Shown here: in pieces, positions 8,917-29,287 of the stretch | Position numbering within the stretch: position 1 is the first letter of the stretch | How the letters are laid out: each line of letters begins with the position of its first letter | Source of the DNA: Marinicella sp. | Lineage (GTDB): Bacteria; Pseudomonadota; Gammaproteobacteria; Xanthomonadales; Marinicellaceae | Direction: 5' to 3' | NCBI GenBank assembly: GCA_965230295.1 | Contig: OZ246001.1 | Span: forward strand, 3,136,001-3,200,000 | DNA: 64,000 nucleotides | Notes under the pieces: generated by a model | The model's input: only the letters and a program-made list of their open reading frames with translations | Database searches by the model: none | Told to the model about the DNA's origin: nothing | Program-made: the position numbers and the translations under genes

Positions 8917-11900
8917 ATGGCAGCAATTATTCACAATTATCAATCAGGATCATCCGCTGTGTCATTAAAACGAAAAACCAACCCCAGTTCAATCAGTCAT
9001 ACCCCCAGCCGTTTGGCGCTTAACATAGCCATCACCACGGCATTAATCACGGGGTATGGTGGTAGAAATGCCTACGCAGGAACTTGTAGCGGTGTGGCCG
9101 GAACATACACCTGTTCTGGTCCCGCATCACCAGCTGATATCACCCAACAGTTGAATGGGTCTAACCTGACGGTTAATACATCCCCCGGGTTTGGTATTGA
9201 TACCACATTGACTGGAGATGAAGCCTTTAGGTTGTATGCACCCGCTGGGGCTGGCAATGTTATATTTACTGACACCAACAGTTCAATCATTACAGGTAAT
9301 GGTGCGGCCATTGATGTAGGCAATTACAATGATGGCTATATCAGTATCTTTGCCAATGGTACCTTAACCAGCAACACCAGAGATGGGATTTCAATTTACC
9401 AATCCAACAGTGCAACCAATGTTCAAGTGAGCGCAGAAGGTGCCATCAATGCCGATGACAGCGGTATCAGCATCAATAACTATGGCAGTGGTTACGCTGA
9501 TGTCTATTCCAGCGGCCCCATCACAGCGACCAACAACCAAGGTATTCGGGTCCGCAATGACCTTGCAGCCAGCAACATCACCATCAGTTCACAAAATGAT
9601 GTTTCAGGTAATGGGGGTATCTATGCCGGCAACTATGGATCTGGCACCACCACCATCACCGCCACAGGCATTGTGGATGGTGGCGGTGATGAAGGCATCA
9701 GTGTCAACAACTACAACACGGCCAGTTCAGTAACGATCACAGCCAATACAGTCACAGCCAATGATGAAGGCATCAGAGCAACCAATTATGGATATGGTGG
9801 CGTTCAAGTGACTGCCAATGGTGATGTCAGCAGTACCATTCGCAATGCCATAGACATCTACAACAACGGATCAGGACCCATCAACATCACCACCAGAGGT
9901 CTGGTCACAGCAAACAACGGGGTTGGCATCAACGCCTATGCGAGTACGGGCTCTACCGGTGTCACCATCAATGCAGAGGCCAACATCAATGCAGAAGATC
10001 CGGCCATCAACGCGATTAATTTTGGTTTATTCAACACCGACATCAACATCACCAATGCATCACTCGTGAGTACCAACAGCGATGCAGTGGAAGTCCGGGC
10101 CTATGCCGATTCCAATACCCTGAGCATCGATGCCATCAACAGCACCATCAGTGGTCAAACCAACGGCATTTATGCCCGTAACTATGGTTCAGGCCCAACC
10201 ACTGTTTACACCACCGGCAGCGTCACTGGCACAGCTGGCGAGGGGATTAGGGCCATCAGTGAAAACACCAGTTCAGGCTTAAGTGTGACCACACAAAGCA
10301 CAGTTTCAGGTAACCAGAATGGTATCAATGCGCAGAACTATGGCACAGGCAATACTGATTTGACCCTGTCAGGTCCTGTGGTGTCCACAGGCATGTTCTC
10401 CTCGGCCATCAATGTTTACAATGAACTGTCCACCGGAAATGCAACTGTTATTACCCAGTCAACGGTGACCTCACAAAACAATGGCATCAATGTTTACAGC
10501 TATGGCAGCGGTGTCACTTCGGTTGATGCCAGCGGCTACATCACAGCCACCGCTGGCGCGGGGATTATAGCTACAAATGGATCAAGTTCGACGGGTCTTG
10601 CTGTCACAGCCAATGGCGGTATCAACAGTTTTGATGAAGGCATCCGGGCACGTAACTATGCCAACACCAACTCCACAGTCACCGTCAGCAATGGCTCAGT
10701 AATCAGTAATGACAACACTGCCATTGAAATGAGTAATTACAACTACGTCAGTGACTTAACCTTGAATGCATATGGCACAGGTGCCATCAGTGGTCGTGTC
10801 AATGGCATTTACACCAGAAACTACAACGGTGGGTCAATCAGCATCACTGCCAACGGACCCGTATCAGCCACCAGTTTTGTCGGAATCAGTGCGATCAATG
10901 ATTATTTAGGGTTGAACATGTCAATCAATACCTTATCAGCTGTCAATGCTCGGTTTCAGGGCATCAGAGCCCAGCACTATGGTACAGGCACGCTGAGTGT
11001 TTTTGCCCAAGGTGATGTCTCATCGACCAACAGTGATGCCGTGTTTGCTTACAATGGTGGTTCGAATACCAGCACAGTCACCACCCAGGGAACCGTCACT
11101 TCTGACACCGATCGTGGTGTTTATGCATACAGTTCAGGTAATTCAGGTTTGTTAGACATGCAAATTCAAGGTGATGTCAATGCCGCAAGAGAAGGCGTTT
11201 TTGCCCGCCATTCAGGTGTCAGTAATTCACAGATCACGATCAGTTCGGCCACCATCACCAGTACAAATTCACATGGAATTTATGCCTATCAAGACAGCAA
11301 CGCAGGTCAATTAACTATCACCAGCAATGGCAGCATCACAGGCCAAGACAATGGCATCATGGCCACATCAATTGCCCCCAATAACATCACCATCAATGCA
11401 AGTGGATTGGTGCAAGGTCAAACTCAATATGGAATCTACAGCACCACCAATACGGGTGTATTGTCGATCATCAACTTGAATTCTGGTGCCAATGTGCTGG
11501 GTGGTATTTACAACAATGATGGCAACTCAATCTCTGTAGTCACTACTGGTGCTTCAATCAGTGGGCCAATCAACCTCGGTGATGGAAACGACATCATCAC
11601 ATTCTCAGGTGGTGACTTTTCAACAGTCAGTGTTTTCGATGGTGGTGATGATGCGTTGAGTGGTGATGGTTCTACAGATTCTCTGTCTTTTCAGGGTTCT
11701 TCAGGCCTGCTATCTGGAGGAGCATTAATTAATTGGGAAAACATCAACATCAGCTTAACTTCTAACATCCAATTTGATGGTGTTGATTCTTTCATGACAG
11801 AAGAGTTTGATTTACTCAATACCGGCGTCTTGACGTTACAAGACGGTGTCACTGATGATAACTTAACCATCAATGCTAATTTCAATGGCGGTGGTAGCCT

Positions 11901-12846
11901 CAATTTGGATACAACATTAGGTGATGAGAACTCAACCAGCGATGTATTAATCGTCAATGGTGACACCTCTGGAACCACCACTGTGAACATCAATAACGTG
12001 GGTGGGGCAGGGGCCATCACCGCGGCCCCAGGTATTTTGGTGGTCGATGTGAATGGTGCTTCCAATGGACTGTTCGAACTGGCTGCACCTATCAATGTCA
12101 ATGGTTATGAATATGATTTGGTTGCTGTCGGCGGTGATTATTACCTGCAAGGTGATGCCACTGATGCCGATTTATCGGTCAACAAGGAGCTGTTGTCCTC
12201 AGGGCCATTTTTTGTGGGTGACACCGTAACTTATGAAATCACAGTCACCAATGACGGTCCTTTGGATGCCACCAATGTGGTGGTCAGTGATGTTTTTACC
12301 AACCTCACATTGGCATCAGTCACAGGTGGTAGTTGTGCGCCAGCCAGTTTCCCGTGCACCATAGCCAATTTGGCTGATGGGGCATCTGAAACTTTAACCG
12401 TTACAGCAACCATTGATGCTGCAGGTGCCTTTGATAATTCGGCATCAGTCTCATCCGATCAACCAGATGCCAATAGCGCCAATAACACCGACAACACCGG
12501 CAATGGTGGAACCGCCATAGGTCGGTACTTCATTGGTGGTTCTGTCAGTGGCTTGTTGTCAGGCAATTACATGTTGTTGCAAAACAATGATGGTGATGAT
12601 GCCATCATCATGAACAATGGCGCATTTGTTTTCAATACGCCATTGGACGATGGTTCTAACTACAACGTGACCATTGAGATGCAACCGGATGATCCCATTC
12701 AGCCGTGCATGGTTGCCAATGGCAGTGGAACCTTGGCTGGAGTAGATGTCACTGATGTCAGCATCAGTTGTGAACCAGGTAATGATTTAATCTTCCGTGA
12801 TGGATTTTCTGCGCCACCGCCGCCCAGATTCATCGAAGAAAATTAA
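8917..12846 (+). CDS. large autotransporter-passenger-like adhesin with DUF11/Ig modules and a DLIFRDGF tail; no beta-barrel
   Basis: ~26-aa beta-helix-like repeats (GI.A.NYG.G..I.A.G.V); pertactin-like LGDENSTSDVLIVNGDTSG...YEYDL...YYL; DUF11-like ADLSVNK..VTYEITVTNDGP. Confidence 0.8.
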   Translation: MAAIIHNYQSGSSAVSLKRKTNPSSISHTPSRLALNIAITTALITGYGGRNAYAGTCSGVAGTYTCSGPASPADITQQLNGSNLTVNTSPGFGIDTTLTGDEAFRLYAPAGAGNVIFTDTNSSIITGNGAAIDVGNYNDGYISIFANGTLTSNTRDGISIYQSNSATNVQVSAEGAINADDSGISINNYGSGYADVYSSGPITATNNQGIRVRNDLAASNITISSQNDVSGNGGIYAGNYGSGTTTITATGIVDGGGDEGISVNNYNTASSVTITANTVTANDEGIRATNYGYGGVQVTANGDVSSTIRNAIDIYNNGSGPINITTRGLVTANNGVGINAYASTGSTGVTINAEANINAEDPAINAINFGLFNTDINITNASLVSTNSDAVEVRAYADSNTLSIDAINSTISGQTNGIYARNYGSGPTTVYTTGSVTGTAGEGIRAISENTSSGLSVTTQSTVSGNQNGINAQNYGTGNTDLTLSGPVVSTGMFSSAINVYNELSTGNATVITQSTVTSQNNGINVYSYGSGVTSVDASGYITATAGAGIIATNGSSSTGLAVTANGGINSFDEGIRARNYANTNSTVTVSNGSVISNDNTAIEMSNYNYVSDLTLNAYGTGAISGRVNGIYTRNYNGGSISITANGPVSATSFVGISAINDYLGLNMSINTLSAVNARFQGIRAQHYGTGTLSVFAQGDVSSTNSDAVFAYNGGSNTSTVTTQGTVTSDTDRGVYAYSSGNSGLLDMQIQGDVNAAREGVFARHSGVSNSQITISSATITSTNSHGIYAYQDSNAGQLTITSNGSITGQDNGIMATSIAPNNITINASGLVQGQTQYGIYSTTNTGVLSIINLNSGANVLGGIYNNDGNSISVVTTGASISGPINLGDGNDIITFSGGDFSTVSVFDGGDDALSGDGSTDSLSFQGSSGLLSGGALINWENINISLTSNIQFDGVDSFMTEEFDLLNTGVLTLQDGVTDDNLTINANFNGGGSLNLDTTLGDENSTSDVLIVNGDTSGTTTVNINNVGGAGAITAAPGILVVDVNGASNGLFELAAPINVNGYEYDLVAVGGDYYLQGDATDADLSVNKELLSSGPFFVGDTVTYEITVTNDGPLDATNVVVSDVFTNLTLASVTGGSCAPASFPCTIANLADGASETLTVTATIDAAGAFDNSASVSSDQPDANSANNTDNTGNGGTAIGRYFIGGSVSGLLSGNYMLLQNNDGDDAIIMNNGAFVFNTPLDDGSNYNVTIEMQPDDPIQPCMVANGSGTLAGVDVTDVSISCEPGNDLIFRDGFSAPPPPRFIEEN

Positions 12847-12882
12847 AAAAACCGAAGAAAATTTAAATAGTTGATTCTGTTT

Positions 12883-12922
12883 AAAAAATAAGCTGCTTAA
12901 ATGTCCATATATTAAGCAGCTT
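12883..12922 (-). terminator. intrinsic terminator with AUGGA in its loop
   Basis: AAGCUGCUUAA-UAUAUGGACAU-UUAAGCAGCUU followed by AUUUUUU. Confidence 0.75.
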
Positions 12923-13188
12923 GCAATTCATGATCACAACACACACTGGCATCCTAGCTCGTGACCAGTCCTTAATAAAGCCAATCCATTTTTGGCTTTT
13001 GGCATCCATGCTGATAATCGTTTCTCACTCAATTCCTAAAAGTGTGGCGGCATCCATTCCGCAGATTATCTTTTCCCTTCTAAAAAACATCCTGTTATTA
13101 ACTGCAGCACACTCATATCCATTTGAGTGATGCGACTTCCATGTCATCGCTACACACCTGAATCCATTCAGGTGTCCCGAAGCGGTGT
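12883..13188 (-). ncRNA. candidate CsrA/RsmA-sequestering RNA (CsrB/RsmY-like)
   Basis: 14 GGA motifs in ~300 nt on the minus strand, most as A(U/A/G)GGA or NAGGA in hairpin loops; ends in a terminator hairpin plus U-tract. Confidence 0.7.
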
Positions 13189-13980
13189 TTATGTACCTTG
13201 TGAATTTACATAAAAATTCAAACTGAATGGTTCATAAGTACCTTCCTCAACGCTTGACTCATATTGGTCAACTTTTTCAATGATCCTCACTCTTAAACTG
13301 TCCCGGATTTGTTTTAACTCATCAGACAACTTTTTTTTATTGTCCTGGTTTATTTGGGTTGACTCAACACTCCACTCAAGCACACTGTTGTCTGGGTCTT
13401 CGATGTTTTTTCTGAGGGTATTAACCACTTTAAAAAATTGGTTGGTCGCATAGTCATATTTTCTTGAGTCAGATTGTTTGTTTAACAACTCTGTTTTTAT
13501 GATTTTGACTTCATTCTTACCGATCAGTTCGATACACCCCAACTCAATCAACTCTTTAACTATCGTTGGTGCAGTCAGTCGCCCTTTGCATTTGTTGCAA
13601 AAGTTGTATAAAGAGTCTCCAGGACCTTTCTTGGGGAGCAGGTTGGTGTGGTTGTCTTTCTGATAATGGAAAAGCTCACCCAGTGTCAAAATGATTGGGT
13701 CTGAAGTTTTTCTGGGTTTTTGGTCCTCGGTTTCTTGGGTAGATTGAACCATTGAAATTTGCCTTCGATCTATCCCTGTCTTCAATGAAATGGCTGAAAC
13801 ATTTGAACTGTTGTTGTTCAGTTTACTGGCAGCATCAATGAACGCGACCTTCAGAAGCTCAGCAGTTTCATTGTATTTGATGTTATTGAGCAACAAAAAA
13901 TGGGCCAATTCATTGAACATGGGCTTCAATTTATTGACTTGTTTTGATTTTAATTGTGGTTGTGAAATTGCGGCTTCCAT
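13189..13980 (-). CDS. DUF6502-like HTH protein (copy 1)
   Basis: ELLKVAFIDAA...SAISLKTGIDRRQI HTH; LPKKGPGDSL; IVKELIELG; paralogous to 33809-34567. Confidence 0.7.
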   Translation of the reverse strand: MEAAISQPQLKSKQVNKLKPMFNELAHFLLLNNIKYNETAELLKVAFIDAASKLNNNSSNVSAISLKTGIDRRQISMVQSTQETEDQKPRKTSDPIILTLGELFHYQKDNHTNLLPKKGPGDSLYNFCNKCKGRLTAPTIVKELIELGCIELIGKNEVKIIKTELLNKQSDSRKYDYATNQFFKVVNTLRKNIEDPDNSVLEWSVESTQINQDNKKKLSDELKQIRDSLRVRIIEKVDQYESSVEEGTYEPFSLNFYVNSQGT

Positions 13981-13984
13981 TAAT

Positions 13985-14006
13985 TTGTGTCCCTAATTGG
14001 ACACAA
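13985..14006. promoter_or_regulatory. palindrome TTGTGTCC-N6-GGACACAA, candidate operator
   Basis: Perfect 8-bp arms just upstream of the DUF6502 ATG at 13980. Confidence 0.5.
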
Positions 14007-14266
14007 TAATAGCATGAGACTCAAAAAAAAGCAAACTAAATTAAGTTTTTCCCTGGGTAATTACAATAGGGCCATATAAAACAATAAGATATAAAGCCTT
14101 TAAAATGCCGCTATTGCTTAGCAATTATTGTACTTTTGCCAAACAGATCAAGGAAAGTGACTGGTTAAGTCAGTAGACTTAGGAGCTGACAGATCAATGT
14201 CTGATGTGATTTGGGCCATTCTTGTTGGTCCAACTCATACCAGCTAGAATAGTATTGGAGGCAATC

Positions 14267-15190
14267 ATGCTTTTGTTATCGAATTTATTGTCCTATTTAA
14301 CAGACCCTATTTTCTTGTTTGGCTTGTTGTTGGCGTTTTGTTTATTTTTGATCAAGTACCTGCTAAAAACCAAAAGAATCAAAGAGCTGCCTGTCGGACT
14401 GTCACAGAAGGTACCCCCTGTGGTTTGGAAGCATGGTTACCTTTTAGGTCTTTTGGTGATGGTGTCAGGCATCATGTTAAAACACAAAGAACTGCAACAG
14501 GCAGAGCAACAGAATGCCATGTCACAATTGATTGTGGAGTACAGCCAAAATATTTCAACCATCAGACAACTGTCAGAAAATACCAAGATTCAGTTGGAGA
14601 CACGTGCTGTTGTGACCAACTCATTGCGCACAAATGGATCGAGAATTTTGGACATCATGTTCCCTAAAGAAATCAAACCTGAAAACACAGACCTTAATAT
14701 TACCAAGGTTGTAGACGATTCATTTGAACAATTGAAAAAAGCCCGGTTATTTAACAGTAAACCTGATATGGATGCCTTTAATTCGATCAAAGGGAAAATC
14801 AGTCCTAAAGTGAATATGCATTTGGCAGAATTGAAATCTATGCAGGATATCAACGGTGATCAGTACATCATCAAGACCAGTATTTATCAAGGACATAAAG
14901 AAATCTTAGCCAGCATTGAATCGTTCGATGCACAAGCTTATGAAGATTTGATTTTAGAGATGGAGGAACTCCGAAGCCAATATGATTTGGTGTTAAACCA
15001 TGCTGAAGATTTCATCTCGGAAACCAAAAACTTCATGGACCGCAATACATTCATTGGGAATGGAGATGTCTATGAAATCCTCACCAAGGAGCGCTTGGCT
15101 TATAAATCATTAACTGAGTTTGATGCAGCCATCATTGGAAAAGCCAATGACTTGGTGCGGATGAAACAAAACATTCAAAGCTTTTTGTAA
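14267..15190 (+). CDS. hypothetical membrane protein (2 N-terminal TM segments, helical C-terminus)
   Basis: GGAGG RBS before ATG 14267; two hydrophobic segments. Confidence 0.75.
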   Translation: MLLLSNLLSYLTDPIFLFGLLLAFCLFLIKYLLKTKRIKELPVGLSQKVPPVVWKHGYLLGLLVMVSGIMLKHKELQQAEQQNAMSQLIVEYSQNISTIRQLSENTKIQLETRAVVTNSLRTNGSRILDIMFPKEIKPENTDLNITKVVDDSFEQLKKARLFNSKPDMDAFNSIKGKISPKVNMHLAELKSMQDINGDQYIIKTSIYQGHKEILASIESFDAQAYEDLILEMEELRSQYDLVLNHAEDFISETKNFMDRNTFIGNGDVYEILTKERLAYKSLTEFDAAIIGKANDLVRMKQNIQSFL

Positions 15191-24902: not shown

Positions 24903-25125
24903 GTGGAAAGCTGTTGAGCAGCTTGACCCGCCGAACCGGTTGGTGAGCAAAGCGAATCAGAGGTGAAGAGCGCGAGGTAGCAAGTCATGTTCGCAGGTTA
25001 GGCAATGAATTCGTTACGGTTTTGCCAAAGGCAAAGAAGTAACGAGTGAATGCCGTAAACCGTGGTCGTTTTCACTTTTGTTTGGAACAAAAGTGAATGA
25101 AGCCTCAAGAACATTCCTTGTTGAT
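24903..25125 (+). repeat. modular structured repeat, left copy
   Basis: Five collinear blocks shared with the reverse complement of 28861-29287. Confidence 0.85.
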
Positions 25126-28860: not shown

Positions 28861-29287
28861 ATCAAAAGGAATGTTCTTGGGGCTCCATTCTGGTTCATGG
28901 TCTGAAAGGTCTTCATATTTGCTGCGCAAATAAACCGACCTTTACAGACTATTGTCTGAGCAGTTGCTTCGCACTGCATGTCTGTTCCAGACAAAAGTGA
29001 AAACGACCGCGGCGAACATGACATGCTACCTCGCACGAATAACGCCATTCACATAAGGCTTCTTGACTTCGTCAAATCGCCACATGTTCATTGGCTATTC
29101 TCTTCGCCTCTGATTGGCCTACATGGATGTAGGTCTGCCGCGATAGCAAGGAGCGATAGCGGCCGCAACATCAAAAGCTCACGGTTAATCAATCATTACA
29201 TCAAGGCTTCTTTGCTTTGCAAAATCGCCATGATTGCATGATTTGCCTAACCGGCTCGGCGAGTCAAGCTGCTCAGCAGCTTTCCAT
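28861..29287 (-). repeat. modular structured repeat, right copy (inverted, with extra hairpin inserts)
   Basis: For example 29249-29285 aaccggctcggcgagtcaagctgctcagcagctttcc is the reverse complement of 24905-24941 with 3 mismatches. Confidence 0.85.

Follow-up and report, generated by a model that had tools for sequence, protein, structure and literature searches.

The window analysed here, a stretch of 64,000 nucleotides from a Marinicella sp. genome, carries on its minus strand a 263-aa open reading frame (ORF; 13189-13980) followed directly by a 306-nt array of short hairpins in which GGA recurs in the loops (12883-13188). The ORF product is a remote relative of the DUF6502 family and a putative DNA-binding protein. 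Its score on DUF6502 (PF20112) is 12.7 bits (E 0.058), below the Pfam gathering cut-off of 27, and two orthologs score 14.4 and 14.0 bits. Comparison within the genome nevertheless linked it to a paralog (G000:C1:2554694-2555326; tblastn E 1.8e-14) that itself scores 96.7 bits on PF20112, with two more same-genome paralogs at 138.7 and 149.9 bits. As judged by sequence comparison, the predicted protein is homologous to bona fide DUF6502 proteins, linked to them only via these paralogs, and the original prediction of a DUF6502 gene stands as a statement of homology but not as a family assignment at the Pfam cut-off.

An invariant TGIDRRQI-type motif is present in the ORF protein and its orthologs, and an AlphaFold model of medium confidence (pLDDT 76.6) contains helical and winged-helix-like parts. 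Foldseek found nothing at E <= 0.001 for this model; HetR came closest (E 3.8e-3, TM 0.37), and MarR-type factors also matched weakly. Motif, model and fold matches together make a DNA-binding role plausible, and the label of an HTH regulator, as originally proposed, has its basis in these three. Our literature search found no paper on DUF6502, nor any joining Marinicella with CsrA. Among the neighbouring features, a 322-aa membrane-anchored protein with no Pfam match is encoded divergently (14222-15190, plus strand), a 1309-aa repeat-rich, surface-protein-like ORF with DUF11 and autochaperone AC_1 domains (8917-12846, plus strand) lies convergent to the array, its end 37 nt away from the terminator of the latter, and a tmRNA gene (Rfam RF00023, 221.9 bits) lies at 1833-2185 on the minus strand.

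The GGA hairpin array

The array begins at 13188, directly 3' of the TAA stop codon of the ORF (13189-13191), and contains 14 GGA, nine A-N-GGA and seven ATGGA within its 306 nt. All of its elements are on the minus strand. A first hairpin of 3 bp, H0 (13177-13185), stands 5 nt past the stop codon and is followed by about nine more, the last of which is a terminator hairpin. H1 (13154-13175) has 9 bp and the loop UGGA, H2 (13132-13150) has the loop AUGGAA, and the two together form a double hairpin (13132-13175) that is a diverged member of a dispersed repeat family, represented by our covariance model R2. They are succeeded by H3 (13110-13129; loop AAUGGAUA) and by H4 (13086-13096), in which only 3 bp close the loop CAGGAU. 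A 7-bp helix, GAUAAUC/GAUUAUC (13013-13070), surrounds H5 (13047-13062) and H6 (13026-13044), beyond which lie three further GGA hairpins, H7 (13002-13011; 3 bp only), H8 (12977-12999) and H9 (12945-12969; 15-nt loop), the latter two outside covariance model R1. The intrinsic terminator (12883-12922) consists of an 11-bp stem, an 11-nt loop with AUGGA and the U-run UAUUUUUU; it went unflagged by a simple terminator scan because its loop exceeds the 8-nt limit of that scan.

The stems of these hairpins are mutually unrelated and the loop motif is their sole common feature, and multiple hairpin-loop GGA combined with an intrinsic terminator are found here as in Csr/Rsm families. The count of 14 GGA directly after the stop, the unrelated stems and the enclosing helix were all as originally predicted, and the hairpins then listed are present as described, although several are weak (H4 and H7 in stem length, H9 in loop size). 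That the array is unannotated was likewise borne out: at gathering scores, Rfam identified only the tmRNA in the whole window and no family for the array, and at E <= 10 over 12600-13500 it returned three chance-level hits, none of them a Csr/Rsm family. The array is single-copy, as a sensitive whole-genome blastn search returned itself and three hits at E >= 0.18. A coding region was rejected as its source on the grounds that small ORFs overlapping it, whichever the strand, lack both a Pfam match and conservation; the antisense ORFs over the array in the two species that carry it (the source genome, G000, and a relative, G003) are dissimilar (E 0.22).

Background frequencies were counted per 300-nt segment and strand across the 4.0-Mb genome (44% G+C). 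GGA occurs genome-wide at a mean of 2.9 per 300 nt (sd 1.8), with a maximum of 14 at which the array ties with one other place, whilst the maximum for ATGGA, seven, is reached only at the array. For A-N-GGA, the nine in the array are second to 11 at the genome's canonical Csr-type sRNA. A third GGA-dense segment (G000:C1:3428823-3429122, plus strand) was discarded as ordinary-looking sequence without hairpin organization. Under a loose test of loop presentation (stems of 4 bp or more, G-U pairs permitted, loops of 4-10), 11 of the 14 array GGA fell in loops compared with a shuffle mean of 3.05, and none of 1000 shuffles reached 11. As 46% of all genomic GGA also pass this loose test, a strict test was used (stems of 5 bp or more with no more than one G-U, loops of 4-10 nt), under which the array holds six loop GGA per 300 nt, the highest value in the genome for either strand (mean 0.30, sd 0.56) and a value reached by none of 2000 dinucleotide shuffles of the array. 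Its minimum free energy is -90.9 kcal/mol, against -77.4 +/- 5.1 for shuffles (z = -2.67). The array of G003 contains five loop GGA by the strict test, a number that 3 of 2000 shuffles attain; under the loose test this array is indistinguishable from dinucleotide shuffles, 120 of 1000 of which reach its count.

Orthologs of the ORF are rare, with 3 of 44 genomes of the family and 3 of 401 in a sample of the order carrying one, and a further eight are known as proteins (41-97% identical). The ortholog-bearing genomes, which include the relatives G003 and G013, belong to Marinicella (family Marinicellaceae, order Lysobacterales in the NCBI taxonomy), Xanthomonas being placed in the same order. 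At the G003 locus the ORF is 47% identical, and the divergent 322-aa neighbour is syntenic and 40% identical, indicating that the gene pair travels together. A GGA hairpin array again stands directly after the stop codon of the ortholog, closed by a hairpin whose apical loop contains GGA and then by seven U, and the 350 nt past the stop hold 12 GGA compared with 14 for the source genome. Blastn of the array against 40 relatives retrieved only itself and missed this homolog. Covariance model R1 (199 positions), built from the source array alone with its annotated hairpins, ranked the G003 array first of the non-self hits in the 44 family genomes (36.1 bits, E 2.2e-8), with the hit spanning all 199 positions from the stop codon on.

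In the R1-based alignment G003 retains all nine helices, with pairing in 98.9% of pair cells and changes on both sides at 13 of 45 pairs, compared with 25-46% paired and 0-2 double changes in slid controls; these counts, which uphold the predicted fold at an orthologous locus, come from two sequences only and from an alignment fitted to the model's structure. The enclosing helix keeps seven of seven pairs, one through a UA-to-CG double change and another through a G-U change, and the helices of H0, H1 and H2, the loop GGA of H4 and the GGA hairpin H7 are all retained. Seven of the first ten array GGAs occupy the same structural place in G003 (H1, H2, H4, a linker, H5, H6 and H7), and the three without a counterpart are the one overlapping H0, the one in the loop of H3, which reads GGC in G003, and the second at H5. 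In a plain MAFFT alignment, exact-column conservation of GGA was 4 of 10 against a background of 16% (P about 0.06). RNAalifold applied to this pair alignment mis-registered H1 and was of little use, and was replaced by the R1-based alignment.

The G013 ortholog (38% identical) has no array, being followed by a small ORF and three GGA in 350 nt, and none was found at 22 DUF6502-type paralog loci, where the 350 nt after the stop contain 2-8 GGA. The possibility of GGA arrays at other DUF6502 3' regions, raised with the original prediction, was not borne out at these loci, and the array is therefore a feature of the ortholog group in two species and not of DUF6502 genes generally. Scans of metagenomes for further orthologous loci found no relative, and a scan of genome contigs yielded no locus beyond the two known before. 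We conclude that the array is real and conserved, a structured RNA element whose loops present GGA.

Probable route of transcription and relation to a dispersed repeat

In a global alignment of the G000 and G003 loci, the sole non-coding block with at least 16 of 20 positions identical lies upstream of the ORF (14018-13987), and its content suggests a promoter whose transcription start is overlapped by an operator. A putative -10 element, TATTAT (14006-14011, minus strand), lies in this conserved block and has GATAAT as its correspondent in G013. The putative -35 element, TTGCTT (14029-14034, minus strand), stands 17 nt upstream of it behind a T-run; it was assigned by reading and was not flagged by a 9-of-12 consensus scan. 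Overlapping the expected transcription start is the palindrome TTGTGTCC-N6-GGACACAA (13985-14006, minus strand), a putative operator. The pattern GTGTCC-N4-8-GGACAC occurs once in the 4.0-Mb genome, and the palindrome is intact in G003 and nearly so in G013; in three further orthologs, the called N-termini appear to translate such a palindrome.

Over the last 200 nt of the ORF, G000 and G003 share no 16-of-20 block and at most coding-level identity. Consensus scans, which could miss a weak internal promoter, detected no sigma70-like site of at least 9/12 in the 3' part of the ORF or in the array of either species. On reading, the sequence shows no terminator from the stop codon to the array, since the strong hairpin H1 has no U-run after it, and the sole terminator of ORF and array is the one at the array end, a layout repeated in G003. 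As in the RsmW/RsmU-type class, the array is directly 3' of a same-strand ORF and shares its terminator. Taken together, these sequence features make co-transcription with the ORF the best-supported route for the array. The attachment to the gene with no gap for a promoter had been predicted to be unusual; the lack of a promoter-like site held, but the arrangement is less unusual than claimed, because RsmW and RsmU are published 3'UTR-derived RsmA sponges.

The same genome encodes the expected binding partner and a candidate canonical sponge. Its one csrA, the presence of which the original prediction depended on, has a typical CsrA translation (92.9 bits on PF02599) and lies about 21 kb from the window. 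A canonical Csr-type sRNA candidate with 12 GGA and 11 A-N-GGA is intergenic on the minus strand (L023, about 500-740; G000:C1 about 1596400-1596640). Its promoter block, TTGACAAGGTTT, about 10 nt and then CGAGTATATAAGTAAG, is strongly conserved in the relatives inspected. The published upstream site of GacA/UvrY is TGTAAG-N6-CTTACA, and none was seen by eye at this promoter. Blastn with the sRNA matched 17 of 23 other genus genomes, often in 2-7 places each, some of which comprise the promoter part only, including one that appears to drive a protein gene. The 16-nt core of the promoter occurs exactly only once in the genome, at the canonical sRNA, and is absent at the array. Rfam searches of the canonical sRNA, the G003 locus, the dispersed repeat copies and the csrA locus returned no Csr/Rsm family, nor a match to the TwoAYGGAY family.

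Downstream of csrA and a tRNA-Ser we also observed three tandem units of about 122 nt (L001, about 2141-2600; G000:C1 3115457-3115916), each starting with a copy of the tRNA-Ser 3' end and containing three GGA-loop hairpins, one of which reads ACAGGAUGU. Their strict loop-GGA count, six per 300 nt, ties the genome maximum. Rfam gave only weak RtT-like hits for these units (32.1 bits vs a 45-bit cut-off), and upstream of them is a partial copy of the 5' half of tRNA-Ser.

It is unlikely that the array is an independent CsrB/Rsm-type sRNA gene with a promoter within the last ORF codons, and hence with expression uncoupled from the regulator. The canonical Csr sRNAs of the genus are indeed independent genes, a UvrY/SirA/GacA-type response regulator is present (L102 1057-1716; G000:C1 2643758-2644417; 275 bits vs an equivalog cut-off of 280), and a weak -10-like CATAAA overlaps the stop codon, just downstream of a partial palindrome, TGTAAA-N7-GGTACA. 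In the RsmW paper, independent transcription was likewise considered at first. As a GacA box, however, the palindrome was rejected: it is a 9-of-12 match with the wrong spacer, lies too near the first hairpin and is lost in G003. Against an internal promoter also stand the consensus scans of both species and the coding-level identity at the end of the ORF. The canonical sRNA promoter is conserved across the genus and has no equivalent at the array, from which it follows that dedicated promoters are conserved at such distance and that the array is without one.

The resemblance of H1-H2 to a repeat bears on a second alternative, that of a REP/BIME-like hairpin cluster in the 3'UTR, serving as an exonuclease barrier or for terminator insulation, with GGA loops inherited from the repeat and unrelated to CsrA. 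Covariance model R2 was built, after a pattern search, from nine copies of the dispersed double hairpin from six genomes, and it scores H1-H2 (13129-13174) at 28.8 bits (E 6.5e-6 in the window search, 3.8e-4 genome-wide). The genome contains 63 R2 matches, H1-H2 included, and the other 62 comprise 56 at 42.8-74 bits and six at 27-32.7 bits. Double-hairpin copies are part of a mosaic repeat, about 490 nt long and represented by 181 blastn pieces genome-wide. Nearly all R2 copies are intergenic (62/63) and 33 of 62 share the direction of the 5' flanking ORF, an absence of orientation bias that was scored with crude ORF calls of at least 150 aa and on copies that are in many cases non-independent, lying in the same mosaic element. 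GGA loops can therefore exist in this genome without an evident RNA-level role, as that alternative would have it, and the idea that dispersed double hairpins are sense-oriented 3'UTR elements was dropped as unsupported.

We nonetheless regard a repeat-derived cluster as an improbable account of the whole array. The R2 fit is limited to its first roughly 45 nt, and the other roughly 250 nt do not match. A REP/BIME-type cluster is recognized by a shared stem and many recurrences, whereas the stems here are unrelated and the array is single-copy. In addition, its GGAs persist in G003 despite turnover of the stem sequences, and its GGA density is the genome maximum compared with about two GGA in a full copy of the mosaic repeat. 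Copies of this repeat were also observed elsewhere in the window, at 28866-29285 (module 29116-29166, plus strand) and 24905-24941. The double-hairpin module carries the loops UGGA and AAGGA and has relatives in at least six family genomes, and the outer stem of its second hairpin covaries between species.

A candidate CsrA-binding tail

With moderate confidence, we favour as most likely the reading in which the array forms a CsrA-binding tail on the regulator's mRNA, co-transcribed as its 3'UTR in the manner of RsmW and RsmU. Transcription, read-through, processing, CsrA binding and physiological effect are steps that we infer. A structured RNA of about 300 nt with about ten hairpin-loop GGA would most likely bind several CsrA dimers. 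Polymerase starting from the conserved promoter/operator of the ORF would read past the stop codon into the array and halt at 12883-12922; with no transcription unit of the array's own, every regulator mRNA would therefore carry a CsrB-sized CsrA-binding tail. Whether still part of the full mRNA or released after the stop as a stable 3' fragment, this tail would titrate CsrA in trans, and by analogy with RsmU and RsmW it would probably also tie the stability of the mRNA to CsrA in cis. A counterpoint to titration is that the regulator mRNA may be too rare unless the stable fragment accumulates. The 3'UTR-type sponge of the original prediction is partly supported: each sequence-based check with the power to refute it came out in its favour (presence of csrA, conservation in G003, and the lack of a terminator or promoter-like site between gene and array), but its DUF6502/HTH label is weak and its arrangement is less unusual than claimed.

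Published 3'UTR-derived sponges provide the closest comparison. RsmW of P. aeruginosa is described as lying in the 3'UTR of PA4570, a small ORF, with no terminator between the two, and it ends in the operon's terminator. It has seven GGA, three of them on outer loops, is co-transcribed and binds RsmA, and a 2026 preprint describes its release as RNase E-dependent and the released RNA as more stable than the mRNA. RsmU (sRX061) of X. campestris arises by processing of the comEA (XC1332) 3'UTR and is lost on deletion of the comEA promoter. At 77 or 117 nt with 3-4 GGA, it includes the terminator, and is described as absent from Rfam and restricted to Xanthomonas; it also depends on RsmA.

The array resembles RsmW in being a multi-GGA RNA directly behind an ORF with no terminator between, but it has 14 GGA (about ten on hairpins) rather than seven, and the host gene and lineage are unrelated. 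It shares with RsmU a position 3' of a gene, absence from Rfam, inclusion of the terminator and the order Lysobacterales, and differs in being about three times longer and in following a putative regulator gene rather than comEA. In scale, in having many GGA in the loops of short hairpins with unrelated stems, in its intrinsic terminator and in the presence of a CsrA partner, the array is similar to CsrB/CsrC and RsmX/Y/Z, from which it is set apart by its attachment to an ORF and by having no Rfam match, own promoter or GacA-type upstream site. The canonical Csr-type sRNA of the genus also has GGA-loop hairpins, a CACUCA...UGAGUG-type stem like that of H3 and the same CsrA available to it, but is intergenic with its own conserved promoter and cannot be aligned to the array by blastn.

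A narrower reading confines the array to a cis-only role, in which CsrA bound to the 3'UTR would set the stability or 3' processing of its own mRNA with no meaningful titration. The mRNAs of transcription factors are likely to be of low abundance, which counts in favour of such a role, and the structural evidence is the same as for the tail that titrates CsrA. A precedent is also available in Xanthomonas, where RsmA is reported to stabilize the comEA mRNA carrying RsmU. The number of sites makes this restriction quite improbable, however: 14 GGA, about ten of them on hairpins, is far above known cis sites, and the scale is that of dedicated sponges, the genome's canonical sRNA having 12 GGA. 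Finally, a chance build-up of GGA and hairpins in an AT-rich spacer, to which loose definitions of short hairpins lend some credit (46% of genomic GGA pass the 4-bp test), is very improbable for an array that none of 2000 shuffles reproduced, that is extreme genome-wide and that is conserved in G003.

If the array is a CsrA-binding tail, it belongs to a kind already known from RsmW and RsmU, and what is new is a testable instance that is larger, sits on a putative regulator gene and aids genome annotation. To our knowledge, most Csr/Rsm sponges described so far come from enterobacteria, pseudomonads, vibrios and legionellae, and we know of no sponge other than the short RsmU in the order that includes Xanthomonas. 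A further and rather doubtful extension is that one autoregulated promoter yields a DNA-binding protein and a CsrB-sized sponge in a single molecule, with the sponge perhaps seeded by a mobile GGA repeat. Were this so, derepression of the locus would switch transcriptional and Csr-dependent post-transcriptional programmes together, and the landing of a repeat behind the gene, with subsequent accretion of GGA hairpins, would show that Csr sponges can be born from REP-like elements. Ultimately, the array provides a large, lineage-specific and Rfam-absent sponge candidate in marine Marinicellaceae, in the manner of RsmW and RsmU, which would tie an uncharacterized putative regulator family (DUF6502) to the Csr network and, as a case in which part of a sponge may derive from a dispersed repeat, would bear on the origin of fast-evolving RNAs.
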